A stretch of DNA of 43,859 nt from an uncultured Verrucomicrobiales bacterium (GCA_964542215.1 CAZITR010000001.1:1-43859); one strand, 5' to 3'. Shown: positions 1,212 to 18,300, counted from the first letter of the stretch. Made by a program: numbers and translations. Notes: a model not told the origin generated them from the sequence alone.

Positions 1212-1348
1212 AGTCGTCAAAAGGTGGAATCCTAGCCTTTCTTTGAAAAAACGCCAGTCCTGAAAACCCTGGCGCGGGACATTTGCCATTTTCGAAGTCT
1301 TTACGCTGAAAGAGGCTCTTTTAGAATGGCGGGGCGCGTGGTAGGAAC

Positions 1349-1687
1349 ATGCGAACTTTATCTGCGCTACCCTGCATAATTGGTGTCGTTCGGGACTCGT
1401 GGAAGCAAGGCTATTTTTCCGTATATCCTATACGGAAGGATTGGGCAGATTTGCCGACTGAGGACAATCTGCTGCTGAAATGCCCTGAAGGGCTGCACAC
1501 TATCCACCTGAGCGAAAACTGGTCGGAAGCCCTCAAAGCGGGGCTTGTGGGCTCTTCGACCGAAATTTCTGAACTGTCCGGCCTGTCTTCGGGCAGAGTC
1601 CGGCAAATCATCCGCATGAGCAACATGCGGCCTGAAATCGTCTCGCACCTGAAAGGGCTGAACGGCAAAAAAGCCCTGAGAAAATAA
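1349..1687 (+). CDS. Small hypothetical protein with a C-terminal helix-turn-helix resembling sigma-70 region 4 or a ParB-type HTH.
   Basis: 112-aa ORF with an AGGA-like RBS just upstream of the ATG. The C-terminal segment STEISELSGLSSGRVRQIIRMSNM resembles the xxEIAxxLGxSxxRVRQI HTH signature. The N-terminal half is unrecognisable. Confidence 0.35.
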   Translation: MRTLSALPCIIGVVRDSWKQGYFSVYPIRKDWADLPTEDNLLLKCPEGLHTIHLSENWSEALKAGLVGSSTEISELSGLSSGRVRQIIRMSNMRPEIVSHLKGLNGKKALRK

Positions 1688-1836
1688 TCCCAAAGGCAGG
1701 TGCAGGCGATTTCAGCGGCCAAACTCGAAGATCAAGTGAAACTCTTCGAGGAAGTTTTTTCGGTCAAAATCGGCACTTAACTTGTTTCACTTGATTCATC
1801 GACCCTCGGTCGAAGCTCTTTCTCTTGAAAGCAAAA

Positions 1837-1871
1837 GGCTCCCCGCCTCGTGGCGGGGAGCCGATTTTTTT
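1837..1871. terminator. Bidirectional intrinsic terminator between the convergent HTH gene and ardA.
   Basis: Perfect 11-bp GC-rich stem GGCTCCCCGCC (1837-1847) / GGCGGGGAGCC (1852-1862) with loop TCGT. It is followed by T7 on the plus strand (1865-1871) and, on the minus strand, preceded by A-run/stop and followed by TTTTGC. Confidence 0.65.
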
Positions 1872-2409
1872 AGTGGTTCATGAAGATGTGAACCTCGTCG
1901 AAGCGGGTTTGCATGGTGACGATGTCGCCGCTCATGTCCATGTCCCGCCCCATGCGCTCGTAGTCGATGTAGAATTGCAAGTGCTCGGGAATCTCGCTGG
2001 TGCTCTCGGTGATTTCCTGTGCGTAGTCCGCTATGCTGGAATAGCTGCCCATGTAATTTTCAAGGGCGCGTGTGGCGTCTTCGATGTCGCCGCAATAGTG
2101 ATCCAGTGCCAAGGTGCCGACTTCGCCGTGCTCCTCCATAAACTCGGCCAGCTCGTGGACTCGCTCGATACTCTCCCATTCGGAAAGGCGGATGCCTCCG
2201 AAGCCTTCAAAGTCATGAATTGCCCATTCTTCCGCGTGTGGGATTGGTGAGGCTGCCAAGACGTTGCGGATTCGGTTCCATGTTTCGTCGATGTCGTTTT
2301 CAATGTCGATCCATTCGCCGTGGAGGATTCCGCTGTTGTAGGCAGCAAGGCAGGCAACATAGATGCGGGGTTGGTCTTGGGTGGTGGTGATTTCTGCTGT
2401 GAGTGTCAT
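1870..2409 (-). CDS. ardA: ArdA-family antirestriction protein (a DNA mimic that inhibits Type I R-M enzymes).
   Basis: 179 aa. RIYVACLAAYNSGILHGEWI, EEWAIHDFEGFG and LQFYIDYERMGRDMDMSGD correspond closely to the Tn916 ArdA blocks YIANLGKYNEGELVGAWF, EEYAIHDYE and LQNYIDYQAYGRDLDLSG as I recall them. The protein is very acidic. A GGAGA RBS lies 8 nt upstream. Confidence 0.9.
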   Translation of the reverse strand: MTLTAEITTTQDQPRIYVACLAAYNSGILHGEWIDIENDIDETWNRIRNVLAASPIPHAEEWAIHDFEGFGGIRLSEWESIERVHELAEFMEEHGEVGTLALDHYCGDIEDATRALENYMGSYSSIADYAQEITESTSEIPEHLQFYIDYERMGRDMDMSGDIVTMQTRFDEVHIFMNH

Positions 2410-2559
2410 TTTTCTAGTCTCCGTTGGTTACGGCCTTCTTCAGTGAAAGCCTGATTTCCCCTGCCAAGCGGCGAGCGAAGCTAGAGAGTGCCCGAAGCGG
2501 ACGGTGCAGCCGTCCAGTCAAGGTGGAGATTTTTTCGCGCAGCGCGGAAGCGAGGAGCT

Positions 2560-2640
2560 TGTGACGCGGCTGCACAAGTGAGCGCAAAAATACGACCTTT
2601 ACGGGTTCAAGCGGAGGGATGGATAATCCTGTGACGCGGC
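2560..2640. repeat. Two copies of an 11-nt direct repeat, TGTGACGCGGC, spaced 70 bp apart in the ardA upstream untranslated region.
   Basis: Exact copies at 2560-2570 and 2630-2640, each preceded by C[T/C]. No convincing ORF covers them. Confidence 0.6.
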
Positions 2641-2673
2641 AGCGGAAAACAGGCTTGGGGAACCCTGACCTTG

Positions 2674-2719
2674 GGGGCGCGTGCGCCCCGTGACTCAATC
2701 ATCAGGGCAATTGAGTGAC
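2674..2719. other. Two adjacent palindromic hairpin elements downstream of the HD-hydrolase gene and upstream of ardA.
   Basis: GGGGCGCGTGCGCCCC (2674-2689) is a GC palindrome. GTGACTCAAT (2690-2699) and ATTGAGTGAC (2710-2719) form a 9/10 inverted repeat around a 10-nt loop. Neither has a U-tract, so terminator function is uncertain. Confidence 0.5.
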
Positions 2720-2827
2720 AACGTGCCGGAGCTTGCGTAGGCGCGTCGAACTTGTTTGCCCCATCAGCGTGCGGCGGTTTCTGTGCCGAGACTAGCGCAG
2801 CGATGGAGGCTCTGTAACCGACGCGAA

Positions 2828-3253
2828 TCAGCCCATGGAAACCAAGCGTTTCCAGTGTTTGTGATACTTCGCAGTTCGCTTGAGGTCGTTCTCCGTGACG
2901 CGCTCAAGCTGCTTGAGGTTCATGTTGTCCTCAAGGTCTGCGATTTTGACTGCTCTGGCGACAGGGTTCGGAGCCAGACGGTCGATGAAATCCTTATAGG
3001 ATTCGCCGTCTCGGCGGGTCAGGCAATTCAGAGCTTCGATGAGTGCCTCGTCGAAGCCTTCTTTTCTCAAATCCTCAAATGTCCATTCAGTGTCCTCGAC
3101 AACGTCGTGGAGCACTGCCGCCATCTGCTGCAATTCGTCTTCGATCTGAAACATCAGTCGAAGGGGGTGCAGAATGTATGGGCTACCATCAAGCCGCGTC
3201 TGCTCTCTGTGGGCAGTCGATGCGATTTCAATGGCTCTGGCTAGGTTGGACAT
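2828..3253 (-). CDS. Stand-alone HD-domain protein of the RelA/SpoT hydrolase type: a small alarmone hydrolase (SAH) and putative (p)ppGpp/(p)ppApp pyrophosphohydrolase.
   Basis: 141 aa. AIEIASTAHREQTRLDGSPYILHPLRL (the RSH hydrolase N-terminal signature A..AH..Q.R..G.PY..HP), the HD dyad in AAVLHDVVEDT, and KIADLEDNMN (the KLADRLHN-like motif). No synthetase domain is present. Confidence 0.75.
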   Translation of the reverse strand: MSNLARAIEIASTAHREQTRLDGSPYILHPLRLMFQIEDELQQMAAVLHDVVEDTEWTFEDLRKEGFDEALIEALNCLTRRDGESYKDFIDRLAPNPVARAVKIADLEDNMNLKQLERVTENDLKRTAKYHKHWKRLVSMG

Positions 3254-3292
3254 TACTCAACCTTTCTTCCAGAAAACCACCCTCAAAGCGAC

Positions 3293-5419
3293 TCATTTCC
3301 GAGAAGCAACAATTCCATCGTAAAAGTAGCCTAAGATGAATTGATCGAATTCATCCAATGATTCGATGCTGCTTATTTTCTCATGCCCGACATCTGCAAA
3401 TTCTGAGATTACTTGGTGGATACTCTTTTCATCAGATTCCAAGTCGATCAGACTGGAATCCTGTATCTTTCTGGAGATGATCCTCGGAAGGCCATACTCT
3501 TCTAGCTGATAGACTAAAACAGGAAGGAAGGCGTGAGCGGCTTTGGCCGCAAAGGATGAAATATCAATCGTGCTGCCAAAAATTTCACGATTGATTGCAT
3601 TTATATCGTGCAGAAGCGTTGCAAGCTTGAAGGCGACATCCCGCTCAAGTTTGAAGAATTCATCAATTGCGATACCTCGACTCGCAGCTAACCTAATTGT
3701 TGCTGCAAGGCCTCGATTCCACCCCGAAGACATCACTTTTGCCGCTTCAACAATTTTAGTATATTGATGGCCTAAGTGTTTTAAGTGTTGAACCTTATAA
3801 AGAGCACTATCCCATCTGGAGGTGTCCGAGGAGTTGAGGTTTCGTAATTGGTTCCATGAATGTGGTTCTGCTTTGATTGAATTTACGATTTTCTTGGCTA
3901 AATCGTAGTCGGAACTCTGTAGAAATCCGCCCGAAAACAGGGTCTTCATCTGTTCGCTTGTCATCAATTCCTCAAGCTCTTCCTTATAGGCGATAATTAC
4001 CGCTATCTGCTCTTTCGTAAGATGACGCTCTTGTTCTTCCTCATCCATTGAGATCAAAAGACTCTCTGGGATATCGAGGGTGATTTGGGCGTCTTCATCC
4101 ACTGGAGGCTCTGCAAGGATATGCACATGGCCGACGAAGTATCTGAACATTCTCCCACCGCGTCCGGCGAGGTTCTTGTAATCGAATGACGTGAGCTTTG
4201 GCTGACCATTTTTATTATGCCAGACGACGACCCGTTCGGCCGCAGTATTTACACCTTCAATAATGGAGGAGGTGGAAATCAAACCTGCCAAACCTTCCTG
4301 TTCCTCAAAGAGCTTCACCTGTATCTGCGACAAAGACCGATGTAGACTGCCATTATGAATTCCATATTTTCGAGTAACCAAGTCTGCAAGGCTCCAGTCA
4401 GGTGAATAATTCTTACGAATCCATGCGCTAAATTGATCCAGTAAGCGGGTGGCGTGCGGGTCAGCACTTTCGCAAATCAGACTCATTAAGCGGTCAACCT
4501 CGGTGTATGTTCCTGCGTAAATGAGGGTCTTTGTATCCCCATTTTCCCGTCCTTCAACCAATAGCTTTTGGAGCACAACGGATTTCTGCTCAATTTTGGA
4601 ATCCTTTGAACCTTTTATATCAAGATACTCCTCGTAGGTCTTCAGGAACACTGTGGACATCTTGAATTCATGAAAGGTCATCCCTTGAGTAAAGACGCTT
4701 TCGGTAAGCGCAGTAATATTGGGTGCTAGGAAATACCGCTGCTTTGCTTTTTTGCTCAGTTCGAGAATTGCTTTCAGAAGAATAAGCGCACGCTCATCGG
4801 ACTTTCTCTGCGCGAATGCCTCGCTAGCTTTGTAAAACTCATCGACGATTAAGATGTCGATCTCATCTAGTTTGTCCAAATACCCGAATGCTCGCTCTTG
4901 GGGAAAGATGAGTATGTTTCTTTCTGCAAGAGGAACATCAGATGTCGTAATTACCTTATACAGCGATGAGAATTTTTTCGTTAGTCGTCTCCGTGCCTCG
5001 TCCATCAACGCAATTGTAGGCACGATAATGACGACGGTTCTTGGCTGCTTGATAGCTATAAACGAATCAATAACGAAGCTCTTTCCAAAACTGGTAGGAG
5101 CACTGATTGCCATATCCCGCCCTTCGAGCAACATGCGTAGAAGCTGAGATTGGTCTTTATGGAGCGTTTTGGGTTCTTCTTCTCCTGTATCCACCTTGAA
5201 AGCCTCATGGACGAGGCGATCCTCCCAGATTGAGGAGTCTGGGTCGATGTAGTGAAAGAACCCCAATCTTCGGGACAGATGATTCACGAGCTCATCGGGT
5301 TTCGAATTTGCCTTGTGAATTTTGTCCAATACGCGGATAAGCTCCTCACGAGCGTTATCCTCATCACCGGATTCGATGAGGCGATTTATCTGGGCGCATT
5401 CTTCGAAGAACATACTCAT
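3293..5419 (-). CDS. hamB: Superfamily-2 helicase, Hachiman HamB-like.
   Basis: 708 aa. Motif I SAPTSFGKS (K113), Ia IIVPTIALMDE, II LIVDEFYK (D193-E194), V ISTSSIIEGVN, VI NLAGRGGR. The C-terminal ~280 aa are helical with no motif I recognise. The start ATG shares one base (5419) with the stop codon of the upstream nuclease-like gene. Confidence 0.8.
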   Translation of the reverse strand: MSMFFEECAQINRLIESGDEDNAREELIRVLDKIHKANSKPDELVNHLSRRLGFFHYIDPDSSIWEDRLVHEAFKVDTGEEEPKTLHKDQSQLLRMLLEGRDMAISAPTSFGKSFVIDSFIAIKQPRTVVIIVPTIALMDEARRRLTKKFSSLYKVITTSDVPLAERNILIFPQERAFGYLDKLDEIDILIVDEFYKASEAFAQRKSDERALILLKAILELSKKAKQRYFLAPNITALTESVFTQGMTFHEFKMSTVFLKTYEEYLDIKGSKDSKIEQKSVVLQKLLVEGRENGDTKTLIYAGTYTEVDRLMSLICESADPHATRLLDQFSAWIRKNYSPDWSLADLVTRKYGIHNGSLHRSLSQIQVKLFEEQEGLAGLISTSSIIEGVNTAAERVVVWHNKNGQPKLTSFDYKNLAGRGGRMFRYFVGHVHILAEPPVDEDAQITLDIPESLLISMDEEEQERHLTKEQIAVIIAYKEELEELMTSEQMKTLFSGGFLQSSDYDLAKKIVNSIKAEPHSWNQLRNLNSSDTSRWDSALYKVQHLKHLGHQYTKIVEAAKVMSSGWNRGLAATIRLAASRGIAIDEFFKLERDVAFKLATLLHDINAINREIFGSTIDISSFAAKAAHAFLPVLVYQLEEYGLPRIISRKIQDSSLIDLESDEKSIHQVISEFADVGHEKISSIESLDEFDQFILGYFYDGIVASRK

Positions 5420-6348
5420 CAGTGCTCCTTCTCCTCTTTGACTCTAGAAATGTATGCGTCTAAGATTTCTTCTTTCTTCGGAACTGGAAACAGTATCAGC
5501 GTGAAAGAAATCTGGTCATACTTGGTGATGTTCTGGAGCTGCTCGATTTGCTTTTTGAAGAATGCATTCGCTCGCTCTTTGTGATGCTCAATCAGCTCAT
5601 CTCTAAGCGCATCATCGAAATCATTCTTTCCCGCGACGATGTCACACTCATGCAATATAAATATGGGAATATGAAGCTTAGGTTTTAAGCGGTCGGTGGT
5701 GGTATCTTCGTCGAGCAGATGCTTTAGCTCTTCGAGCATGTCAGGATCGCTGATGTATTTACCTAACTGACATACGCCAGTAATGATTGAGTTTTCTTTC
5801 CTGATTTTGTTTGGGTCTAAAGAATTGCCGACTGACTTAATAATTTCAGCAAGGCGCGCATTCTCGATTGAGTTGTAAAATTTGGCTTCGCCATACCAAA
5901 TTTGAAAATCACCGTCCGCCACCGTGATGTGGACGCTATCAGCACCCTTCGCGTTATCTTTGACATTCTGCTTATAGAAAATCTTAGGAACTGCGGGAAT
6001 AGCGCCAAAGTGCTTCCTCATGATTCCATATAAGAAAATCTCTGCCAACTCACTCCCTGCGCCCTTTGTTTCTGCCGTCTCATCTTTCGTAAGACGCATC
6101 CTAGATGCCGCTCGACCTAAAGCTGTGGCATGGTCACCTGCAAGAGCCTCTCGTTCTTCCTCCGAGAGAGCCGTTTCTGCCACATTATCCCAAACAAATC
6201 TGTGGAATGCTTTCGCTCGCCATATTCCTCCCTCATAGTCGTTACAAAAGCTAAGCAAGTTCTTGCGGTCAATAGGTGCCAGAGAAGAATCCTCGCAGAA
6301 ATTTGCGAATGCTTCGTCTATGACGATGTTAAACTTGGTGGAGGACAT
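5419..6348 (-). CDS. hamA: DUF1837-like protein with a PD-(D/E)xK-type motif arrangement, Hachiman HamA-like effector.
   Basis: I place the start at ATG 6348 (MSSTKFNIVIDE), 22 nt after the hsdR stop, giving 309 aa; the track ORF start at 6426 would overlap hsdR. Motifs are GAGSELAEIFLYG (E100), KGADSVHI (D137) and WYGEAKFYNS (E154-x-K156). It is paired with an SF2 helicase, as in Hachiman. Confidence 0.7.
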   Translation of the reverse strand: MSSTKFNIVIDEAFANFCEDSSLAPIDRKNLLSFCNDYEGGIWRAKAFHRFVWDNVAETALSEEEREALAGDHATALGRAASRMRLTKDETAETKGAGSELAEIFLYGIMRKHFGAIPAVPKIFYKQNVKDNAKGADSVHITVADGDFQIWYGEAKFYNSIENARLAEIIKSVGNSLDPNKIRKENSIITGVCQLGKYISDPDMLEELKHLLDEDTTTDRLKPKLHIPIFILHECDIVAGKNDFDDALRDELIEHHKERANAFFKKQIEQLQNITKYDQISFTLILFPVPKKEEILDAYISRVKEEKEH

Positions 6349-6370
6349 TTGATTTCTGGTTTTGGGATAC

Positions 6371-9300
6371 CTATATCTGCCCACCGACGCCCTTAAACTT
6401 CTCCACGAATGTAGAGATTTTCTCAAACACGGTTTGCTTCTTCGTTTTGTATTGCGGGTTGAGCGGACTCATTTTGGGGAGCGCGGCATTGAGTGCAGTG
6501 CCATTTTCAGTCGCGTATTCCCGCTTCAAGGATGCCTTGATGTAGCGCCTCGCCTCTTCTTCATTCAGCCCTTCGGACTGGATCAGTTCAACAGCCTCAC
6601 GCTTTTGTTCCTTCTGAGCGAACTTGAAGAACGTATCAATCACAGTGGCTTTGTCGCCGATGTCGTCGAGGTTCGTCTGATTGATAAAATCGACAATCAA
6701 GCTTTCCTTCGCACGACTCCCAATGCTGGCTCGGATTACACGGCGCACTTCATCGATGAGGTCTTCCTTGTTCTTAGTCTTCTTGTTGTGCTCAAATATC
6801 AGCTCCAGAATGTAGTCGAGGTTGATCTCTTGGGATTTCAACAAGTCCACCTCAAAGACGACATCATCCCAATCCACGGTTGATGGCTCTTTTTGGTCGC
6901 CTTCCTTCTGGCGTCTTAGCCAGTCACGGGTGTCATTGTAGGTTGAGCGGTAGTCTTGAACCAGTCTATCAGATGGCACGTCGATCTTTCGCATCGCCTC
7001 AATGTCGTCATCGTTCAGGTAATGCTTCGCCTTAAATTCTTCGACGGCTTCTTCATCTTCGAGGTCAATGTCCTGCAAGGCATTCAGTCCTGTAAATTCA
7101 TCATAGTTACGCAGAATGTTCTCCACGCGGAGGTATTCTCCGAAGAGCTTTACGAACGCCTTCTTGTCCTGTTCTTTCTCAATCTCGCTCGGCTCCGGAA
7201 AACGTTCCTGCAACTCAGTAACCACATCCACATAACCACGGCACGCCTTTCCGGTGGCAATGTCCGTAAAGCCTTCCATGTATTCTTTGTAGCTCTTCTC
7301 CAGAACCACGTTCTTGGTATTCGCATTCCCGAAGAGCGTAATTGCATTGATCGTGCTCTGTTCCAAATCGCGGAAGGTCACGATGTTGCCGAAGGTCTTG
7401 GTCGCGTCATAGATGCGATTGGTGCGCGAATACGCCTGTAGTAGGCCATGGTAACGCAGGTTCTTGTCTACAAAGAGTGTGTTAAGCGACGGGGCGTCGA
7501 AGCCTGTCAGGAACATGCCTACGACGATAAGTAAGTCCACTTCTTGCTTTTTAACCCGTTGTGCTAGGTCGCGGTAATAGTTCTGGAAGCCCTTACTATC
7601 GACGCCAAAGTTCGTTTTGAAAGTAGCATTGTAGTCACCAATCGCCGCGCTGAGAAATTCCTTTGCGCTGCTGTTCATGGCCGATACTTCGAAACTCTCA
7701 TCAGGAATATCGCCGACAGCGTCCTGCTCTTCATTGGCCGCAAAGGAGAAAATGGTCGCCACGTTGAGGCGTTTTTTGTCCTCCACTCCAGCTTGTAGCT
7801 CACGAAATGCCTCATAGTAGGCTTTCGCTGCATCCACACTGCTGACTGCAAACATGGCATTGAAGCCCTTTGCTCCCATGTGAGCACGGTGCGTCTTATG
7901 TGAGAAATTCTTTAGGACATAGCCGGAAATCTCATGAATTCGATCAGGGTGAAGTAGTGCCTGTTTGTTTTCCGCAGCCGTGAGCTTTTTCTCATCTTGC
8001 TCGGTTTCGATAGCTTGGAACCTAGGGCGCACATCATTGTAATCCACTTTGAACTTGAGCACTTTTTCGTCTCGTATGGCATCCGTTATGACATAGGAAT
8101 GCAACTCACGCCCAAAGACACTGCCCGTAGTCTCGGCACCGGAAGCGTTCTCTGGGAAGATCGGCGTGCCCGTAAATCCGAATTGGTAATACCGATTAAA
8201 CTTCTTTTTGAGGTTTTTCTGCGCTTCCCCGAATTGGCTGCGGTGGCACTCGTCAAAAATAAAGACGACTTGCTTATTGTAGATAGGCAGGTCGCCTTCT
8301 CCCCGCATCAGGTTGTTGAGCTTCTGGATGGTGGTGACGATGATCTTGTTGTCGTCTTTCTCGATATTACGCTTCAGCCCAGCCGTGCTATCAGAGCCAT
8401 TCACGCTGTCGGGCGAGAAGCGTTGATATTCCTTCATCGTCTGGTAATCGAGGTCTTTGCGATCCACCACGAAGAAAACCTTGTCGATAAACTCCAGTTC
8501 GGTGGCCAAACGTGCCGCTTTGAAGCTAGTGAGCGTCTTGCCTGAACCTGTGGTGTGCCAGATGAAGCCACCACTCTCGGCCTTGCTCCAGTTCTTCGCT
8601 TGGAACGCGCTCTTGATCTTCCACAAAATGCGTTCTGTTGCCGCGATCTGGTAGGGGCGCATCACTAGCAGCGTGGCGCTCACATCAAAAACCGAATATT
8701 TCAGAAGCACTTCCAGCAGGGTGTGCTTCTGAAAAAAGGTCGCAGTAAAGTCCTTGAGGTCTTTAATTAGGGTATTGTCCGACTGCGCCCAGTTCATAGT
8801 AAAGTCGAAGCTGTTTTTGTTTCGCTTTACCGTATTCGCGAAGTAACGGCTGTCTGTGCCGTTCGAAATGACAAAAAGCTGTAGATACTTGAAGAGAGAG
8901 TTCTCTGAATTGAAGCTCTCCTTGCTATAGCGGTGCACTTGATTAAAAGCTTCGCGGATCGCAACGCCGCGCTTCTTCAGCTCCACCTGCACCATGGGCA
9001 AGCCATTCACGAGAATGGTTACGTCATAGCGATTGGCATGGCTGCCTGACTGCTCAAACTGCTTGATGACCTGAAGCTTGTTGTTGAGCACATTTTTCTT
9101 ATCGAGCAGGTAAATGTTCTCAATATGCCCATCATCGAAGACAAAATCTTTGATGTAGTTCTCATGCAACTTACGAGCCTTGTCTGTGCTGTTTTCACTG
9201 GCAGGATCGAGGTATTGCTCAACGAAGCGCTTCCACTCATCCTCTGTGAATACCATGTCGTTCAGTTCCTGAAGCTGCGCGCGCACATTAGCCAGCATAG

Positions 9301-9475
9301 CTTCAGGCGTGCGGATTTCCTGCGCATATTCGTAGCCTTGATTGACCAAATCCCCAATAAACTCACGCTCAAGTGCGTCTTCACTCTGGTAATCCTCGCC
9401 GACTACGCTGTCCCGCTCGTAACGATCTAGGACGATGAAGTTCTTGGATTCTGCGATGGTTTTGTAGCTAGTCAT
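6371..9475 (-). CDS. hsdR: Type I restriction enzyme R subunit (Type IC-like).
   Basis: 1034 aa. N-terminal PD-(D/E)xK-like nuclease segment [20 protein letters not shown]2 motor motifs [13 protein letters not shown] and [12 protein letters not shown], and later [14 protein letters not shown]. The start overlaps the stop of the upstream gene (ATGA at 9472-9475). Confidence 0.95.
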
Positions 9476-10740
9476 GTTGCAGTTACTGTCGGTTGGGCAG
9501 GCTGTGCGCCGTCTCGTCTGAAATGAAAGCGGTTCTCCTGATTGATACTATCCGCAAGGAATCGGAGGACGCGCTTGTCTTCCTCATCCAAATCTCGGAT
9601 TTCATCCCCCGCATGCTTGGAATGACTTCCCCAGTTTACGATGCGCTTGGCGTAGGCATCCGTTGTGCCGTCACTTGTTCTGGGCAAAAGCTCTTCCCAG
9701 TTTTTGTAGCCGAGGAAGGTTGAGGTCTTCTCCAAGATGTTCCGCAAGAAATTGAAATGATATTTGTGAATTTGCCCCGCCTCTATCGCTCTATTCAACT
9801 CAGCATTTAGAAAGAGGTGATAAGAGAATGGCGAGTCTGTGGGCTGGTCTTCCAAATCTGCAGTGCCATCCTCGAATTTAACCAGCTTGTGTTTACTGAA
9901 CTGCTTGGCCTTCCATCCAAGCTTCTTATCGTCTCGGCTAAATTCGTTGCACAGAACGTTGTAAAAAAGTGGGTTGTGCGTTGTTACAATGAACTTCAGC
10001 CCCTGAAGGTCATAAAAATGACTACGCTTGATGAGCGTCGCGATGTCCACGGCCAGTCGGATCAAGTGATTGTCATCCAAAGAGCTGACGGGGTCATCAA
10101 TGAAAATATACTTTAGGTCGTTAAACTGGTCGGTGTCGCGTTCATCCACTTCAGTAATATTCAGCGTTTCGACCACCTGATCGATCAAGGTGTAAAACAC
10201 GCTCCAGATGAAATTGCTCTCTTCCCCCTTGGAAAGCTTGATGTTTTCTTCCTGCTGCTGATTTCCTCGCTCAAACGAGAATGTGACCTCGGAGTTTTTA
10301 GGCACTTTTCTGAGAACATTCCCATCCTTGCCCTTGATTTCATATGCTTCGTTGAAGTGCGGCGTGAGCTTGTCGCTAGTATAATATTGGAAGTTACTGA
10401 TTATGTTTTGATCCTGCCCCTGATCGTTCAAAACCCAGCTCGTAAAACCATTCGGCTGTATGATGAGTTTGGGGGCAATATCTTCGGTTAAGTCGTTATC
10501 CCAATAAAACAGGTCTTCTGTGAACGCATTGTAGTATAGGATTTTTGGGAGAACGGTATCCGGTTCTTCATCTTCTGCTTCTTCTATATTCACAGGGGCT
10601 TTGGGCGCGACACGTTCTTTGAATTTCCGAGATAGGCGTGTTTTCCCGCTCCCATTGAAGGCGTATATGAGCTGCACCTTCTTCTCACTTGCCTCAAGTT
10701 GCTGGGCGATGGTTTCTAGTGTCTGGCTCATTTCAAGCAA
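9472..10740 (-). CDS. prrC: PrrC-like protein: an ABC-type ATPase N-domain fused to a putative anticodon-nuclease C-domain, embedded between hsdS and hsdR.
   Basis: 422 aa. Walker [10 protein letters not shown] (30-34), ABC signature-like LSKGEES (169-175), Walker [13 protein letters not shown] (211-222), H-loop VTTHN (252-256). The C-terminal region has R333-x3-E337 (FLRNILEK) and H373 (NWGSHSKH), resembling the Arg/Glu/His triad I recall for E. coli PrrC. The position hsdM-hsdS-X-hsdR is identical to the classical prr locus. Confidence 0.75.
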
Positions 10741-11890
10741 CTACCTCCCTTGGCTCTTCGGGTGTCGGAAAGCTCAACAACAAAGCACGGTAATACTCAT
10801 ATTGCTTCTGCCTCAGCTCGATCTCCCGAGGGAGGCCGTCGCTAATCGAGCTAGTGAGTGTATCAAATTTATCTAAAGTGCCGACAATGAGTTCCTTTCT
10901 CTCAGGCGATGGATTAGGAATTCTGATGCTGTTTAAATTCTTTTTGTTTAGTTTGGGTTGCGCAGCTCCTGATATGTATGGAGTTAGATCAATACCATTC
11001 AGATAATATTCTACGTAACGCCGCTCATGGTATGTTTCGAACCTAAGGACATGGGCATGATTGTTTACCCAACTTTTACCGCTGACGCTAAAAGCAATGG
11101 GAGTTTTTCTTGCTGTCAGGTTAGCACCATCTTCCGAAACTAACAGGAGATCTTCATCAAAGATATAGTCTTTAACGTAATCAACTACGCCTGATGCGCC
11201 GTAATATGGAATATCACCTGTTTCTCTTAGCCCTCCTTTAACAGGCTTTCGCTGAGAGTCCAAGTTTTCCGCAAGTTCGCCCAACGCTTTCCATTCAACG
11301 TCTCCCTCGTCAAAGGTCAGGAGCTTATTACGATAGTAGTTGTATTGCTTTCGTCGCGCTTTAAGCTCGGTCGTAAGCTCGGTCGTAAGCTCGGTGAAAG
11401 TGTCTAAGATGCGGACGATTTCCGCTTGGATGGCCAGCGACTTTTTAGGGTTATCTGGGCATGGGATGGGGATTTGAAGATTTACTATTTCACTTTTTTT
11501 CAAAGCAGGAATTCCTGCTCCATGCTGACAGTTTGTGAGCTTTTCTTGATTGAGCTTTAGGAAATGAAAAACATAGCGGTTATCGACAATCTCGAGCCTT
11601 GGAAGAACCACATAGCAGTGTGCATTTGCGTAGAATTTTGAAGTCACAAAATTGACGAAACCTGCTGAAGCTCCACCTTGACTGATTATCGTAGTGTTCT
11701 CGGAATAATTATAGCTGTCAGTGAAGCCAGAGTATGAAATACCACCGTTGTATGCTGGGAATAACCCCTCCTTAGACAACAACTCTTTATTGAGTTGTTT
11801 GCCTTTCTCTAGATCAACAGCGTCTCCGAGAGGAGACCACGTCACCTTCTCTCCATTGAGCAGCCTGTCTATAAAGATGCTGTTACTCAT
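10733..11890 (-). CDS. hsdS: Type I restriction enzyme specificity subunit.
   Basis: 385 aa. Two target-recognition halves, each followed by a conserved helical segment (…[30 protein letters not shown]… and …[20 protein letters not shown]…). It overlaps hsdM by 4 nt and the prrC-like gene by 8 nt. Confidence 0.9.
11362..11396 (-). repeat. 12-bp tandem repeat (about 2.9 copies) encoding TEL(T/K) x3 in the central spacer helix of HsdS.
   Basis: The plus strand reads taagctcggtcg taagctcggtcg taagctcggtg. The minus-strand translation is [16 protein letters not shown]. Confidence 0.9.
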
Positions 11891-13449
11891 GCCTCGCTCC
11901 CTTCGATTTCAGCAACTATGGCATCGATGTCCTTGCGAAGCCCGTCGATCTTGCTGACGGTTGCCTCAATTTCTTGATTTAGTTCCGTGATATTAACGAC
12001 TTCACGTGTATCCTTGGCTTCCACGTATGTGCTGACCGAGAGGTTGTAGTCGTTTTCTTCCGCAATGGCCTCCATGCGAACAGATTTAGCGACATGCTCC
12101 ACATCCTCCTTGCGGTCGAAGAGCTTCATAATCTCTTCGACATGGTCATCCGTCATCACGTTATTATTGGTCTCTTTCTTGAAAAAGCCCTCGCCGGAGG
12201 CATCGATGAACTGAACCTTGGTGTCAGTCTTGTGCTTGGAGAGCACGAGAATATTCACGGCAATCGTGGTGCCATAGAAGAGATTTGGCGCAAGAGAGAT
12301 GACGGTCTCCACGAAGTTGTTATCCACCAAGTATTGGCGAATTTTTTGCTCTGCGCCACCACGATAGAAGATGCCAGGGAAGCAAACGATGGCAGCTCTG
12401 CCCTTGCTCGAAAGATAGTTGAGCGTATGCAGCACGAAGGCGAAGTCCGCCTTGGACTTGGGAGCCAACACACTAGCCGGAGCAAAGCGGTCGTCATTAA
12501 TGAGTGTCGGATCATCACTGCCGATCCATTTCACCGAGTAAGGTGGATTGGAAACAATCGCATCGAAGGGCTTATCATCGCGAAAGTGCGGATCAGTCAG
12601 CGTATTGCCTAGCTGCATGTTGAACTTATCGTAGTTCACATCGTGCAGAAACATGTTCATCCGCGCGAGGTTGTAAGTCGTGTGGTTGACCTCCTGCCCA
12701 AAGAAGCCTTCTTCAATGAGGTGGTCATCCATGTGCTTTTTCGCCTGTAGGAGAAGTGAACCAGAACCTGCGGCTGGATCGTAAATCTTGTTTACGCTCG
12801 CTTGACCATGGATGGCAAGCTGAGCGATGAGCTTGGAAACATGCTGAGGCGTGAAGAATTCGCCTCCAGATTTTCCGGCATTAGCGGCATATTTGCCGAT
12901 CAGAAACTCATAGGCATCGCCGAAAAGATCGATTTCACTGTCCTCAAAGTGACCAAAGTCGAGTTCATTGACCCCCTTCAAGACTGACGCTAGACGGCTG
13001 TTCTTGTCCTTAACCGTTTTTCCCAAGCGATTGCTGGTGGTGTCGAAGTCATCAAACAATCCCTTGATGTCCTCCTCTGAGTCATAGCCCATGGCTGAGC
13101 TCTCAATGGCGGTGAAAATAGCCTTGAGGTCAGTGTTCAGGTTTTCGTTATCGTTCGCATTCTTGACTACATTGACAAAGAGCTGACTGGGGTAGATGAA
13201 GTAACCCTTGGTCTTGATCGCGTCTTCTTTAATCGCCGCAAGGTCTTCATTGTCATCGGCTATCTCCGCGTAGCGGAAGCTGTCGTCACCGCCTTCGATG
13301 TAGCGAGCAAAGTTCTCGCTAATGAAGCGGTAGAAAAGTGCCCCCAGCACATATTGCTTGAAGTCCCATCCGTCCACTGTTCCTCGCACATCGTTGGCAA
13401 TCTGCCAGATGCGACGTTTGAGTTCCTCGTTTTGTTGTATGCTGGTCAT
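11887..13449 (-). CDS. hsdM: Type I restriction enzyme methyltransferase subunit (N6-adenine).
   Basis: 520 aa. SAM-binding [11 protein letters not shown] and catalytic [11 protein letters not shown] (NPPY). The N-terminal HsdM helical domain begins [23 protein letters not shown]. Confidence 0.95.
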
Positions 13450-13452
13450 ATT

Positions 13453-13629
13453 CTATTTTTCGGAAGATTTCGGTTTCTCCTGATTTTCCGGCTTGGTCTG
13501 TAGCTGGGATTCACGGATTTCAAGGAGGCGAAGTCCCTCACGCACCACTTCGCTCGCTGAGCGATAGCGCCCCTTTTCAACGAGTTCGTTGACAAATTCT
13601 TCCAGCTTATCGGTCAGGGATACATTCAT
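13453..13629 (-). CDS. ParD-family ribbon-helix-helix protein (58 aa). No cognate toxin is present. It is the first gene of the R-M array and a possible transcriptional controller.
   Basis: Not in the ORF track (below 60 aa); this is my own translation: MNVSLTDKLEEFVNELVEKGRYRSASEVVREGLRLLEIRESQLQTKPENQEKPKSSEK. The block L..EFV..L...G.Y.SASEV.REGLRLL matches the ParD/COG3609 RHH N-domain as I recall it. The stop TAG at 13453-13455 lies 3 nt before the hsdM ATG. Confidence 0.7.
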   Translation of the reverse strand: MNVSLTDKLEEFVNELVEKGRYRSASEVVREGLRLLEIRESQLQTKPENQEKPKSSEK

Positions 13630-13637
13630 TCAACCGC

Positions 13638-13665
13638 ATGCTAGAAAACGCCTGAAAAATGTCAA
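13638..13665 (-). promoter_or_regulatory. Candidate sigma-70-type promoter for the RHH-hsdMS-prrC-hsdR(-hamAB) array.
   Basis: The minus strand reads TTGACA (13665-13660), a 16-nt spacer, then TAGCAT (13643-13638). Only 8 nt separate the -10 element from the ATG, so the transcript would be leaderless or nearly so. This is a consensus match only, and the host promoter rules are unknown. Confidence 0.3.
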
Positions 13666-13707
13666 AGACTGTTATCATCGAAATTCGAGGGTCTAACTAG
13701 AAATTCA

Positions 13708-15010
13708 TTGGATGATGACCACCACGCGGTAGCGGCTGCCCAGTCGCTCGCTCAATGGGAGCGGCAACTGACGAAGCAACGCGTCGCCGACAAGATTGCT
13801 GAGCGAAGCAAGCGCGGTTATTGGAATGGCGGGAATCCGCCATTCGGATACGATTACAGCAAGGATGAGAAGCTTCTGCTCCCGAATAAGCAAGAAGCTC
13901 AAATCGTCGCCAATGTCTTTGAACTCGTCGCGCAATACGGCTCTCCGACTGAGATTGCCAAACAACTCAACAAGGACGGCATCAAGACCAAGTCATTCTT
14001 GGCCACCAAGAAAGACGGCAAAACGAAGATGATGGGCGGCAAGCGTTGGGTTGGCCAAAACGTCACTCGGCTCGTTCGCAATGCCATTTACAAGGGTGTC
14101 ATCGTTCACGGAGACAATGAGTATGAGGGACGGCACAAGGCTCTGGTCGATGCCAAGCTCTGGGAGAAAGCGAATAAAAAGCTGGTTGAAAATCAGCCTG
14201 CTCAATCTCCGACGCGGAGGAGCAATCGCCATGAAATGCTCCTGAAGGGCATTCTCAGGTGCGACCATTGCAATCGCTTTCTTGTGCCAAAGCCTGCTGG
14301 CAAGAAAGACAAGGACGGCAACCCATACCTTTATTACACCTGCGGCGACCTGAACAAACACGGCAAGAAAACCGATTGTGTTCTGAGAAATATTCCTGCC
14401 CGTGCGTTTGAAGATTTCATCATCAAGTTACTGGCTGAGCTTGGAAAGCATCCCGACGTGGTCAAAGCAACCGCTGAAGCTGCGAAGCGGGAGCATAAGG
14501 AAGCTGTGAAGCCATTTGAGGCCAAGCTCAGAAAGGTCGCGAAAGAGCTGGATGAAGCATCAAAAGAAGTCGCCTCGCTCATCGACATGGCCAAACGGCC
14601 AGAGATGAAGAATCTGTCGGGTGAATTCATGGCGGAGGCCGATGCGCTCGGGAAGCGAAAGAGTGACTTGCAGGTGGAGCGCCAGAAGCTCCAGATGGAA
14701 ATCGACTATCGGCGTTCGCTGGTGGTCGATGAAACCATCCTCTACAAGAACCTGACCGAGTTTGCTGCTCTCTTTGAAAAGCTTACTTTCGAAGAAAGGG
14801 CGGAGCTGGTGAGCCTGCTTTTCAAAGAGATTCGGGTGTCGCGTTTCGACCCCGAAAAGGACGAACATTCCTGCGATCCAGACGTATTCGTAACCAAAAT
14901 GCGAACTTCATGGTATCGCGTGGATTTGAGAATGTTCTCAAAGTCCTTCAACATGAAGGACTTGCTGGGAAAGTGCGAGCTGGAACCGGAAGTTCGCAAT
15001 AAGAATAAAA
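13708..15010 (+). pseudogene. Large serine recombinase lacking the N-terminal catalytic (resolvase) domain. The recombinase domain, zinc ribbon and coiled-coil are retained.
   Basis: The ORF opens with an alternative TTG, and the first recognisable residues (AAAQSLAQWERQLTKQRVADKIAERSKRGYWNGGNPPFGYDY) correspond to the end of helix E and the start of the recombinase domain. Also present are NAIYKGVIVH, zinc ribbon CDHCNRFL...YYTCGD...C, and a long coiled-coil (KLRKVAKELDEASKEV...). No Ser-nucleophile region exists upstream: an in-frame stop lies at 13642-13644. The 3' end is uncertain because the frame runs on without a stop to 15435. Confidence 0.8.
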
Positions 15011-15030
15011 GTGGCGGAGAGGGTGGGATT
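15010..15030. repeat. Direct repeat of the tRNA-Ser 3' end (an att-type island junction). Its partner copy is at 15194-15214.
   Basis: AGTGGCGGAGAGGGTGGGATT is identical at 15010-15030 and 15194-15214. The second copy includes the CCA end, discriminator base, 3' acceptor strand and part of the T-arm of the tRNA. Confidence 0.85.
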
Positions 15031-15195
15031 GATTTTGTTCCGCAGTCGCGGAACTCCATCTGTGCCGATTGCTCGCTGTGCTCGTATTATATCAGTCCCG
15101 CAGACAGCGGGACGAAGGGCGCTCGAACTGCGTTCTCATCCCACCCTGTATATTCAAAAGCCCTGCCACGCTTCGCTTGTGGCTTGGATTTTGAG

Positions 15196-15283
15196 TGGCG
15201 GAGAGGGTGGGATTCGAACCCACGATGCCTTGCGGCATGCCGGTTTTCAAGACCGGTGCATTCGACCACTCTGCCACCTCTCC
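15196..15283 (-). tRNA. tRNA-Ser (anticodon UGA), type II with a long variable arm and an encoded CCA.
   Basis: The reverse complement GGAGAGGTGGCAGAGTGGTCGAATGCACCGGTCTTGAAAACCGGCATGCCGCAAGGCATCGTGGGTTCGAATCCCACCCTCTCCGCCA folds by hand. Acceptor GGAGAGG/CCTCTCC; anticodon stem CCGGT/ACCGG with loop CTTGAAA; variable stem ATGCC/GGCAT; T-arm GTGGG-TTCGAAT-CCCAC. Confidence 0.95.
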
Positions 15284-15331
15284 GGAAACGTGCCCCTAAC
15301 TTCCCCCGGCTCGGGCAATGCGCAACAAAAA

Positions 15332-18300
15332 CTATTTTTTCGACTCGCTTTCCGCCGCCGCCGGCTCGCCCTCGGGCTGGATCAATACGGGGAGGGCCTT
15401 GTCACCGCCGAGATATTCCTTGGCCAATGCATTGATCTCATCCAGTTGGATCGCCTCGTAGTCCGACACAAAACTACGCGCCCAGTCCAGCCGTTGCGGG
15501 TACTCCTGGCTGCTCTGCATCACGCTATTCATCCAGTAGCGGTTGGTTCTCCGGTACTCCTCGATTTGGTTGATCTGCGGTTTTTTCGCCCTCTCCAATT
15601 CATCCTCCGTGACCGTACCGGCAGCCAAGCCCTCGCCGATTTCCCTCACCACACCCGTCAACATTTGGGCCTGGTCCGGTTTGGATGTTACCGCGGCAAA
15701 AAGGTATCCGTAGCCTTCGAACACATCGCTCGGCAGATTGTGGGCAAAGGGGCTGTAGGCATCCCCCAACTCCTCGCGCACTTTCACCCGCAGGCGGTCG
15801 TCCATCACCAGCGCCAGCACGCTCAGGCGGCGGGTCCGTTTGATGTCCCAGATATCCTCAGTCGGCCAGTACACCAGGGACATGGCTTTCGGAATCGCTG
15901 TCTCCACACCGAAGGTCTGCTCCTTGACATCCCGGGGGAAGGCGACCTGGCGCTGCTTCTCGTAAGAGGGCTTTTTGTCCTCGCGTTTTTCCAGGTTGCC
16001 AAAGGTGGCCAACACTTCGGCGATCATTTTCTCCATCTCAAAATCGCCGACGACCGTGAGCTCCAAATAGGAACTGGCAAGCGGCTCCTGCAACCACTCC
16101 CGGACATCCTTCGCCGTCAGTTTCTCCATCTCCTCCTGTGGGGGGAACCCAAAGCGGGGATCCCCGCTGTGCAAGAACTGACTCACTGCACTTTGCATCA
16201 CCCCTTGGGGAGTCCGCTCGATCTGTCGGTAGATTTGATCCATCCCCCGCCGAAACAAGGCAGCCGCTTCCGGACGGTATCCCGGATCGGTGAAATAAGC
16301 CCGCATCAACAGCAACTGATCGTGCAGGTCATCCGCGTTGGTCTGGCCGCTCATGGCAAAGGCGTCGTCCTCCACACCGAAGCGCACCGAGGCCGTCACC
16401 CCTGCGTAGATGCGTTTGATTTCGTCAATGCTGTGCTCGCCCAAACCCCCGTCGGCAAAAGTGTTGCCGGCAAAAAACGCCAGCCCCGATTTGTCCTTGG
16501 GTTCCACCAGGCGGCCGCCACCAAAACGGGCCTTCACATGGACTGTTTCATCCTCAAAATCAGTCACTTTCAGGTTCACCCTCACACCATTTTCCAACAC
16601 CAACTGGGTCACCCCGAGATCCTCCACCACTTCTTTCTTGGCAACCTTGCCGGGTGCCGGGAGTTCGCTGTAGGCAAAGGCCTGTTCCTCCTGTAAAACC
16701 GGTGGCTCCACTGCAACTGCCTGGCTTGCTTGGTAGGCAGCCAAAATCGTGTCCTCGGCATTCTCAAGCTCCAGATTGCCGGTGATCAACACCAGTTTTT
16801 CCCCGCCCCCATCCCAAGCCTCCTTCAGTAGTGCCTGGCATTCCCCGGCGGTGATTTTTTCCAACTCGGCCTCCACCCGCCGCAAGTCATCCGCCGGACT
16901 GGTGAATACTTTCCTGCTACCAAGGTGGCTGGCGATCGCACTCGACAAATCCCTGGATTTCCGGGTTCCCATCGACTTGGCCTCTTGGCTATACGCTTCC
17001 AAAACATTCGCCTTGGCCTCCTTCAACTCCGAAGCGGTGAATCCAAACTCCAAAGCCTGCCTCAGCTCTTTGTCTGCGGTCTCCAGCGCCTCCCGCCAGT
17101 TCTCCGGACGGCAAGTCACCTCGAGGGAGGCATAGCGGACAAACCCGAGATTGTAGAGGTCATAAATATGGGAGGCACCACTCAAAATCGCCGCCTCTTC
17201 CTTCTTAGCCAGAATTTCCAGTCGCCGGGAGATAATCCGGTTGGCCAGGGCCAGACGCAAGTCCTTGGCACGTCGCTGCAGCGAGTCGCCCCCCTCGTCC
17301 ATCGGTTTCATGGTGTCGATAGAGACCGACACTTCGCCCGCCTCTGGCTCGGGATGGAAATGGGCAGCCAGCCCCCGCGAAGTCAACTTGCCGAGGTCTG
17401 GCTCCGCCGCCTTCCCGCCGGGTTTCAAATCCGAAAACACTTCTTTGATAGAGGTCTCGATCGCCTCCTCATCCACGTCACCCACCACGATCAGAGCCAT
17501 CCGGTCGGGCGTGTACCATTTCTGGTAGAACTCCACAAAGCGTTCCCGCGGGGCATCCTCGATGACCTCTTCCTTCCCGATCGGCAAACGGCTGCTAATC
17601 AACGCGTCCGGCAGGATAAATTTCAATTGCTCCACAAACGTCCGCCAACCCACGGAGTCCCGCGTCCGTTTTTCGCTCAGGATCACGCCACGCTCTTTCT
17701 CGATCGCCTGCTCTTTCAACAACATGCCGTCGGCGTAGTCACGCAACAATTGGAATCCCTGTGACAACAGCTCGGGATCCGAGTCGGGCATCTCCAGTTT
17801 GTAAACCGTCTCCTTGAACCCGGTGTGGGCGTTGGTGTCCGCCCCGAAAGCCATCCCCAGCCGTTGGAAATACTCCACCATCTCACCATCGGGAAAATGT
17901 TTTGACCCGTTGAAAGCCATGTGCTCCAGAAAATGCGCCAACCCCTGCTGGTTGTCCTCCTCCATCAGCGAACCCGCGTCGACAAACAAACGCATGCTGA
18001 CCCGCTTGGGTGGCTCGCTGTTCTTCATGATGGCGTAGCGCATCCCGTTCTCCAACAGTCCCCACTTCACCGCCGGGTCGGGCTTGATGTCGCTACCCTC
18101 CTGTGCCAGGGGGATCGGACTGGTTTCTTGTGAAACCGCCTGTGCCGCCTCCGGCTGCCCAGCAGAGCCTTCCTTGGTCATGTCGGGGGCGCTTGCCTTC
18201 TCGTTGCTGCTCTCCTTGGACAAAGGTTCTTTTTGGGGAGATTCCCGCGGTGCTTCCCGGCAAGCCTGCGCAGAAAACAACAAGGTGAGGGCCAAAGTCA

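Follow-up and report, generated by a model that had tools for sequence, protein, structure and literature searches.

A putative composite defence operon behind a conserved promoter and ribbon-helix-helix gene in a Verrucomicrobiales mobile element

Introduction

Do restriction, anticodon-nuclease and Hachiman genes that lie end to end on one strand form a single defence machine, or are they separable modules brought under common control? The question is raised by a block of about 10.3 kb (positions 3293–13665) in a 43,859-nt stretch of DNA from an uncultured Verrucomicrobiales bacterium (GCA_964542215.1 CAZITR010000001.1:1-43859), the whole of which we call the window and whose coordinates we use throughout. 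An original prediction had read the block as one probable expression unit in which a type I restriction–modification (R-M) system, a PrrC-like guard and a Hachiman pair travel together. Following up that proposal computationally, we consider it probable that the block is a composite defence operon gained by horizontal transfer and that it belongs to a family of defence operons, found in Verrucomicrobiota-type contigs, that are headed by a gene for a small ribbon-helix-helix (RHH) protein.

Seven packed genes on one strand

A listing of open reading frames (ORFs) reproduced the predicted run of seven co-directional minus-strand genes between 13629 and 3293 (RHH, hsdM, hsdS, prrC, hsdR, hamA and hamB), all of them intact, and the ORF coordinates returned all six junction lengths given previously. 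The RHH gene (13629–13453) is followed after 3 nt by hsdM (13449–11887), which overlaps hsdS (11890–10733) by 4 nt; hsdS overlaps prrC by 8 nt if the latter starts at the TTG at 10740; prrC, ending at 9472, overlaps hsdR (9475–6371) by 4 nt; and a 22-nt gap separates hsdR from hamA (6348–5419), which shares 1 nt with hamB (5419–3293). For prrC a start at ATG 10731 is the more likely, because homologues align from there and the same arrangement occurs on plasmid pKON1; its junction with hsdS would then be a 1-nt gap. The claim that the block holds no internal terminator-like hairpin stands for the intergenic gaps, which have no room for terminators, and has to be relaxed for the genes: there are six weak hairpin-plus-T matches on the minus strand, all inside coding sequence and about as many as expected by chance.

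Pfam and PADLOC searches confirmed the identities of the cassette genes. The methyltransferase gene hsdM matches N6_Mtase (1.8e-115) and HsdM_N in Pfam and MTase_I (1.6e-114) in PADLOC; hsdS encodes a specificity subunit with two target-recognition domains, matching Methylase_S in two stretches; and hsdR encodes a restriction subunit with HSDR_N, SWI2_SNF2, T1R_D3-like and EcoR124_C (4.2e-74) domains and a PADLOC match to REase_I (E=0). Full-length matches for all three subunits, the EcoR124-type C-terminal domain and the M-S-R order on one strand place the system in type IC. HsdR has 71–89% amino-acid identity to HsdR of PrrC-type loci, and HsdS, as expected of the variable subunit, is only 26–56% identical in most relatives and is replaced in one sequencing run (X6).

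Between hsdS and hsdR lies the anticodon-nuclease-type guard gene prrC (9472–10731; PADLOC PrrC, 2.6e-136). Residues essential in the NTPase domain of Escherichia coli PrrC (EcoPrrC; Lys46, Thr47, Asp215, Asp216 and His251; PMC3025547) have counterparts in Walker A K30/T31, D212/D213 and H252, at least 97% conserved in 80 homologues. Likewise, the essential C-domain residues of EcoPrrC (His295, His315, Arg320, Asn321, Glu324, Arg349 and His356; PMC3025547) are kept as H305, H325, R330, N331, E334, R363 and H370, with matching spacing (20, 5, 1, 3, 7) save for 4 residues inserted between the equivalents of Glu324 and Arg349. Less well kept is the peptide that recognises the lysine anticodon: where EcoPrrC has KYGDSNKSFSY-H the window has ...TDSPFSYH..., so that only the FSY-H end is retained. 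Coupling of PrrC to its R-M host is classical knowledge. Against solved structures PrrC had no sequence match.

The last two genes encode a Hachiman pair. The predicted nuclease HamA (DUF1837; minus strand, 5419–6348) matches Pfam HamA at 8.4e-55 and PADLOC HamA at 1.8e-122, and keeps, across 119 homologues, D137 and E154-x-K156, corresponding to the D-E(X)K motif described as catalytic (PMC12278908); it is too diverged to match a solved structure by sequence. The superfamily 2 (SF2) helicase HamB (3293–5419) matches PADLOC HamB at 3e-207 and the solved HamB chain 8zue_B at 1.3e-47, with which its GKS and DEF motifs align.

A promoter and RHH head in front of unrelated cargoes

The predicted sigma-70-type promoter, TTGACA-16-TAGCAT at 13665–13638 on the minus strand, was located correctly and is both the best promoter match and the sole 10/12 match in 16 kb. 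Because its −10 element ends 8 nt before the RHH ATG, the operon mRNA is probably leaderless. A longer head motif that includes the −35 hexamer, TAACAGTCTTTGACATTT (13657–13674, minus strand), occurs once in the window and in none of 100 shuffles. All 31 RHH loci with enough upstream DNA have one copy, some 45 nt ahead of the RHH start, and the motif is absent from the 127 other loci. In all sampled contexts the upstream DNA has the layout TAAC-N4-TTTGACATTT, a 16-nt spacer of free sequence, an nAnnnT −10 element, 8 nt and ATGAATGT, the −10-to-ATG distance being 9 nt only in the Rubritalea locus; as a search pattern, the head site is TAACNNNNTTTGACATTT-N27/28-ATGAA. In eight diverged loci the −35 element, the 16-nt spacer length, the nAnnnT −10 element and the gap to the ATG are kept despite divergence of the spacer sequence itself. 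This geometry, conserved in every RHH locus, together with intergenic gaps too small for other signals, makes a single upstream promoter plausible.

The first gene (13453–13629, minus strand) encodes a 58-aa ParD-like protein consisting of an RHH DNA-binding half and a basic, low-complexity tail. It scores 47.6 bits (2.3e-12; cut-off 21) against Pfam PF03693, ParD_antitoxin, over profile positions 7–49 of 81, and 67 bits (cut-off 46.2) against NCBIfam TIGR02606 over positions 2–45 of 70; it thus has the N-terminal RHH domain of ParD and not the C-terminal toxin-binding region, its last 14–18 residues forming a basic, variable tail. No ParE/RelE toxin gene adjoins it: hsdM begins 3 nt past the RHH stop, with no small ORF between. 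At E ≤ 1e-8 there are 231 homologues, mostly of 55–60 aa, the named ones coming from Rubritalea, Luteolibacter, Ruficoccus and Opitutales. Across 121 cluster representatives most of residues 1–40 are at least 90% conserved, and the tails are short, basic and variable.

What follows the RHH gene differs from one locus to the next. An RHH 93% identical to that of the window precedes SspB-SspC-SspD-SspF (L136); one 84% identical precedes a type I R-M system with a cyclase of the cyclic-oligonucleotide-based antiphage signalling system (CBASS) abutting hsdR (L137–L144); one 76% identical precedes an AAA_15/21 ATPase, type III Mod and Res (L149–L158); and the Rubritalea RHH, 89% identical, precedes a 69-aa ORF beside a Tn3-family transposon (L145–L148). 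With the combinations described below, the head stands before at least six cargoes: R-M with PrrC and Hachiman, R-M with Hachiman, Hachiman alone, type I R-M with a CBASS cyclase, SspBCD-F, and an AAA ATPase with type III R-M. The gene after the RHH in relatives is SspB, HsdM, HamA or the AAA ATPase, and in every context the cargo begins 3–12 nt past the RHH stop. Scans of viral contigs with HamA, the RHH 5′ DNA and the head motif gave no match, and no RHH was found upstream of distant Hachiman or PrrC loci. Some PrrC-type loci carry XRE or excisionase-type helix-turn-helix genes in the upstream position.

Two of these loci, L137 and L149, share an upstream protein of 424–428 aa (L137 88–1374, L149 3108–4382) that is 99% identical between them, has no Pfam match and is probably a tyrosine recombinase, judging from its sequence; the heads behind it carry different cargo. 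The pair, one with type I R-M plus CBASS and the other with an AAA ATPase plus type III R-M, looks like cargo swapping within one element family.

Modules that recur together and apart

The block recurs as a unit within a narrow clade and not more widely. We found it in at least six independent assemblies or runs, with identical gene order in a contig of a metagenome-assembled genome (MAG), in soil, marine, microbial-mat and single-organism runs, and in short ENA/JGI contigs. The stronger claim, that restriction, anticodon-nuclease guard and Hachiman travel as one unit, is not supported in that form: Hachiman is missing from all 36 informative loci with a PrrC-type R-M system, Hachiman occurs without R-M, and a sister cassette (L121) lacks PrrC.

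That sister cassette, represented by L121 and L122, is the most instructive relative. Its DNA is 80–87% identical to that of the window, with HamA 93% and HsdM and HsdR 90% identical, and in L121 the homology runs from the promoter and RHH start (~13631–13675) to 3268, some 25 nt beyond the hamB stop codon, limits that nearly coincide with those of the original prediction. PrrC is missing from L121, where a PDC-S05/RhuM gene separates hsdM from hsdS and a PDDEXK_3 gene separates hsdS from hsdR. Its intact hsdR is followed, ahead of hamA, by a degenerate second hsdR 3′ end of about 220 nt (L121 7765–7994, L122 1833–2062), homologous to the hsdR 3′ end of the window and including the TAG and ~21-nt spacer before the hamA ATG. 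Because this relic matches the window junction (spacer at 6349–6370, minus strand), the joining of hsdR to hamA is ancestral to both lineages; and because the relic lies behind a different intact hsdR, the R-M part has been exchanged at least once.

More distant relatives separate the modules further. In 80 metagenomic loci with PrrC relatives (54–79% identity) the order is always hsdM-hsdS-prrC-hsdR, none of the 80 has RHH or Hachiman, and the 36 without Hachiman are those that reach at least 1.2 kb past hsdR. The closest plasmid relatives carry the same four-gene module, flanked on pKON1 by IS6 copies. Searches of E. coli and plasmid DNA matched only hsdR, at 72–76% identity, and yielded no relative of the whole cassette; the E. 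coli locus that we inspected has no PrrC. Conversely, a relative of this R-M system lies upstream in none of 36 genome loci with HamA relatives (43–52% identity), a weak HsdM-like match of 24% identity in one of them (L033) being the only approach to it. Closer HamA relatives (81–90%) stand behind a T5orf172 gene in L123 and L127 and behind other genes in L124 and L128. In one scaffold, L129, an RHH 91% identical to that of the window has the same promoter, and 11 nt separate this RHH from hamA-hamB; HamA is 84% identical there and R-M is absent. This arrangement suggests that head and Hachiman tail can be joined directly and that the R-M/PrrC core between them is separable; its insertion between RHH and hamA and its deletion in L129 are equally parsimonious. 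The position after hsdR is also held, in relatives, by CBASS or other genes and seems to be a docking site.

Other genes are tightly appended after hsdR in some PrrC-type loci (L073, L087, L088, L060 and L077): an unannotated protein of 326–341 aa whose gene overlaps hsdR or starts 11 nt after it; one of 313 aa after a 21-nt gap; and one of 360 aa, 31 nt away, that looks RhuM-like by eye. On the Hachiman side, in the proteobacterial relatives L003–L007 (Formivibrio, Nitrosomonas and Burkholderiales), an ORF of conserved length, 101–116 aa, ends 12 nt before hamA and may be an accessory or regulator gene.

Foreign and mosaic composition

All seven spot GC values of the original prediction were exact on recount, and a uniform composition across 1–16 kb is ruled out by windowed GC and tetranucleotide profiles. 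The block lies at 44–50% GC, the stretches at 1.2–3.3 kb and 13.7–15 kb at 52–56% and the host at 58–62%; overall the cassette has 47%, whereas the genes of the carrier element itself have 51–55% and the host 59%. Tetranucleotide correlations are 0.44–0.53 between cassette segments and host, compared with 0.92–0.94 among host segments. Host ORFs in the window (n=19) have 59.4 ± 1.8% GC and a GC content at third codon positions (GC3) of 0.70 ± 0.06. Within the cassette, GC3 differs between genes, being 0.48–0.50 in hamA and hamB, 0.45 in hsdS, 0.57 in prrC and 0.62–0.63 in hsdM and hsdR, the last two close to the neighbouring HD gene and recombinase remnant (0.63–0.64); the cassette is thus itself a compositional mosaic. 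That the block was acquired separately from its carrier, as had been proposed, is borne out by this difference in GC and by L121, which shares just the block and has unrelated flanks.

The carrier element and its deletion

The operon appears, from its surroundings, to be cargo of a mobilizable element that integrates at tRNA-Ser. The island extends from ~1325 to 15030, between proS and tRNA-Ser(tga), and ends in a 21-nt copy of the tRNA-Ser 3′ end (15010–15030), a perfect direct repeat of 15194–15214 in the tRNA gene itself (15196–15283). The two copies are 184 nt apart, and the 163 nt between them (15031–15193) may be a remnant of another integrated element. At the other end a degenerate copy (14/21; 1325–1345) coincides with the left limit of similarity to a marine run, X3; alone it is weak, 114 of 2000 shuffles reaching the same score. 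In X3 and a further run, X4, the element is ~97–98% identical and past 15030 abuts a different tRNA sequence, which indicates that the whole element has been in more than one genomic background.

An exact look-up of the RHH protein led to an Opitutales MAG contig (L130, which is also contig L001) with the same cassette. Upstream of its RHH gene lie a RepC-like gene, a type IV secretion system coupling protein, NikA, a relaxase, a PP2C phosphatase and a Ser/Thr kinase; downstream of the cassette come the HD gene, ORF94 and ardA, as in the window. In the window, by contrast with this undeleted element, only the last 49 nt of the kinase gene remain (13705–13754, minus strand), followed on the plus strand by a serine recombinase remnant (13744–15009, within a 'recombinase' at 13708–15435) that has only the Recombinase and Zn_ribbon_recom domains, its catalytic resolvase domain missing. 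Homology on the kinase side to L130–L134 and X3/X4 stops at 13754, whose L130 equivalent falls inside the 3′ end of the Pkinase gene, and similarity to the recombinase resumes at 13744; the junction is an 11-nt repeat, TCGCTCGCTCA, at 13744–13754. The window has thus undergone a deletion between two TCGCTCGCTCA copies, a single event that stripped its element of the relaxase and coupling-protein genes, of the replication gene and of the catalytic domain of the recombinase. Insertion of the cassette, considered as a cause of the recombinase truncation, is ruled out by the homology to L130–L134 and X3/X4, in which the deletion between the 11-nt repeats accounts for the fusion of the kinase 3′ end to the recombinase. 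In X4 the reading frame continues upstream as TGELFLNLLL|SLAQWERQL, so the recombinase is probably intact there.

The PP2C and Ser/Thr kinase genes of L130 (7597–9926) are co-directional and end 74 nt upstream of the RHH head. The kinase weakly matches MAD6, the kinase of the methylation-associated defence system (MADS; 6e-05), and the pair may be another defence module.

The co-directional run extends past hamB. An HD gene (2828–3253, minus strand; 141 aa, GC 53%), outside the cassette, lies 39 nt downstream and resembles RelA/SpoT hydrolases (N-terminal region of TIGR00691, 6e-16), and after it comes the anti-restriction gene ardA of the carrier element (1870–2409, minus strand; Pfam ArdA, 7.2e-44). 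The two are candidate anti-defence genes, co-directional with and downstream of a type I R-M system (1870–3253). The first strong terminator downstream of the promoter, a bidirectional one with an 11-bp stem of which 10 pairs are G-C, stands only at 1862–1837; read-through from the cassette promoter would therefore co-express ArdA with a restriction system that ArdA could inhibit.

The HD gene varies beside Hachiman. Runs X6 and X7, compared over window positions 2604–4288, have an ~80%-identical hamB joined directly to the DNA past the HD gene, skipping 2820–3311, and in L123 the gene is reduced to ~100 nt of its start; with one variant lacking the gene and another keeping a remnant only, it behaves as a presence/absence polymorphism. 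The ~420 nt between the HD gene and ardA (2410–2830, ORF94) have no Pfam match, and a fold resembling the single-stranded-DNA promoters of conjugative leading regions, sought there upstream of ardA, reached a DNA fold z-score of only −1.86 and is unconvincing. Elsewhere in the island, a 112-aa ORF at 1349–1687 on the plus strand has no family match; its C-terminal half looks like a helix-turn-helix by eye.

How the operon might work

The reading that we favour, a composite operon of the RHH-headed family, would proceed as follows. The sigma-70-type promoter 8 nt upstream of the first ATG would yield a leaderless mRNA and drive the 58-aa ParD-like RHH protein, which is proposed to repress its own promoter. 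One transcript would carry type IC hsdM, hsdS and hsdR with the embedded prrC, then hamA-hamB, and with overlaps or gaps of 1 to 22 nt the genes may well be translationally coupled. By homology with studied relatives, R-M would be the first line, cutting unmodified DNA; PrrC, following the prr paradigm, would stay latent on the R-M complex and cut a tRNA anticodon loop once a phage blocks restriction; and HamAB, again by homology, would independently sense damaged or free DNA ends, degrade DNA and abort the infection. The layers would be co-regulated rather than mechanistically fused, with the head, the R-M/PrrC core and the Hachiman tail as recombining modules.

Several observations weigh against this reading. 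On the side of transcription, two metatranscriptome runs share sequence words with hsdR and yield a single 225-nt contig on the block, lying inside that gene; promoter-like matches taken together show no enrichment, with 10 against an expected 12.9; and promoters could yet lie within coding sequence. On the side of the regulator, its genomic contexts were sampled by six look-ups among the 231 homologues, no operator was identified, the Rubritalea RHH precedes only its 69-aa ORF in a layout more like that of a toxin–antitoxin pair, and in L121 (289–460) the RHH gene is decayed (ATG to ATT, a frameshift and an early stop) with the promoter motif intact, so that RHH is dispensable at least there. 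Finally, RHH directly before hamAB is a single observation, from one 2.1-kb metagenomic scaffold (L129) with no Ns.

Of the alternative readings, the least improbable, though we think it rather unlikely, is that the seven packed genes are a cluster transcribed from several promoters and not one operon. In classical type I systems hsdR is transcribed from a promoter of its own, a Hachiman promoter may lie within the hsdR 3′ end, the 263-nt spacer holding the hsdR relic between hsdR and hamA in L121 could hold another, and hamAB in L123, L124, L127 and L128 are expressed behind other upstream sequences. Scans for consensus promoters carry little weight in either direction; in the window they give internal minus-strand matches only at 7656 and 6048, both inside genes, and none upstream of hsdR or hamA, where gaps are at most 22 nt, and the single strong promoter accompanies the head, conserved, in every relative. 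An assembly chimera, conceivable for a window that probably comes from a metagenome-derived genome, is refuted by the independent assemblies that carry the arrangement: a separate MAG contig has the same gene order, Logan contigs of soil, marine and single-organism origin span the junctions, and the ENA/JGI contigs L131–L135 confirm that between head and hsdM.

Two further explanations concern function, and we regard both as improbable. In one, RHH is a true ParD-type antitoxin that neutralises PrrC or HamAB by protein contact and is not a transcriptional regulator, as its scores above the curated ParD cut-offs and the Rubritalea layout might suggest; the match is confined to the DNA-binding half, however, ahead of a short, basic, variable tail, no ParE/RelE gene is adjacent, a nearly identical RHH precedes unrelated cargo, and RHH is decayed in L121 though HamAB is intact. 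In the other, restriction, PrrC and Hachiman are one functionally coupled three-layer machine, the stronger form of the original prediction, with HamAB triggered, for example, by type I cleavage products or by inhibition of R-M. Hachiman is activated by DNA damage and 3′ single-stranded DNA ends (PMC12278908), the ~21–22-nt hsdR–hamA junction is old, being common to the L121 lineage as well, and another RHH-headed type I R-M system has a CBASS cyclase abutting hsdR. Yet each module is found alone or with other partners, and the variety of abortive systems after hsdR argues for a permissive docking site rather than a specific partnership; we find no evidence that Hachiman is functionally coupled to restriction.

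A more far-reaching proposal, which we put forward tentatively and as distinctly less probable than the composite operon itself, is that the ~230-bp promoter–RHH head serves mobile elements of Verrucomicrobiota as a portable adapter for both the expression and the recombination of defence systems. The near-invariant promoter motif and RHH codons 1–40 would act as a homology arm, whole cargoes would be exchanged immediately behind it, at points inside the variable RHH tail or past its end, and RHH would repress a costly multi-layer cargo until infection. The window operon would then be an R-M/PrrC module captured between the head and a resident Hachiman pair.

Significance

A defence super-operon of this kind is an expected object: its components are textbook or recently solved systems, and type I R-M islands that begin with a regulator and enclose an abortive system are already in the literature. 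New are the particular combination, with a complete Hachiman joined to hsdR by ~21–22 nt and a scar of that old junction still present in a sister element; the evidence for three layers that behave as interchangeable modules; and a very conserved unit of leaderless promoter and RHH gene before at least six unrelated defence cargoes. That head is the most informative part of the cassette. Should RHH prove to be a repressor, it would join the few regulator families known from defence islands, namely C proteins, BrxR/CapW, CapH and RptR, and give a simple handle on new defence cargo in a poorly studied phylum.

Comparison with known systems

The core of the block resembles the E. coli prr locus (EcoprrI) in its hsdM-hsdS-prrC-hsdR order, its EcoR124/IC-type R subunit, and a PrrC with ABC-type NTPase motifs, the Arg-Glu-His triad and the other essential His, Arg and Asn residues. 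It differs in its Opitutales-type host, in having RHH before hsdM and Hachiman after hsdR, and in a PrrC that keeps only FSY and His of KYGDSNKSFSY. Type I Hachiman (HamAB of E. coli ECOR31; 8zue_B) likewise shares a DUF1837 nuclease with D-E(X)K, an SF2 helicase and overlapping genes, whereas hamAB in the window has no promoter region of its own and lies just 22 nt from hsdR.

By gene arrangement, the closest published analogue of the whole operon appears to be the RptR–type I R-M–DarTG–M48 island (RRDM) of enteropathogenic E. coli, in which RptR represses seven ORFs, RptR-hsdM-hsdS-DarT-DarG-hsdR-M48 (PMC12255303). Both have seven ORFs with a small DNA-binding protein first, a type I R-M system, one promoter upstream of the regulator, an abortive-type system between hsdS and hsdR and an extra gene after hsdR; the authors of that study regard the hsdS–hsdR gap as a likely recombination hotspot (PMC12255303), and TgvAB is embedded in a Vibrio type I locus. 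In the window, by contrast, the regulator is a ParD-like RHH protein whose repression we infer, the embedded system is PrrC and not DarTG2, and a complete HamAB is appended. RptR itself is described as an alpha-helical, bZIP-like dimer that binds TAGCTA repeats (PMC12255303), and that description sets it apart from the window regulator, which by Pfam and NCBIfam has the ParD RHH fold and, on this indirect comparison of folds, would not be its homologue.

A need for control is documented for the Hachiman tail: the system is mildly toxic (PMC12278908), and in the Pez-Ham arrangement of Streptococcus thermophilus PezAT represses Hachiman to limit its cost (PMC13064477). There, too, a DNA-binding module derived from a toxin–antitoxin system stands upstream of Hachiman, as RHH stands directly before hamAB in L129, but it belongs to the epsilon/zeta family, whereas the RHH here is a lone ParD-like protein whose toxin partner is absent. 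RptR and PezAT, as published analogues, make repression by RHH plausible. In heading diverse defence systems, this small regulator also recalls the WYL protein BrxR/CapW and the C proteins of type II R-M systems; it differs from them in fold, and in that here regulator and promoter are conserved together as a portable DNA unit before unrelated cargo.

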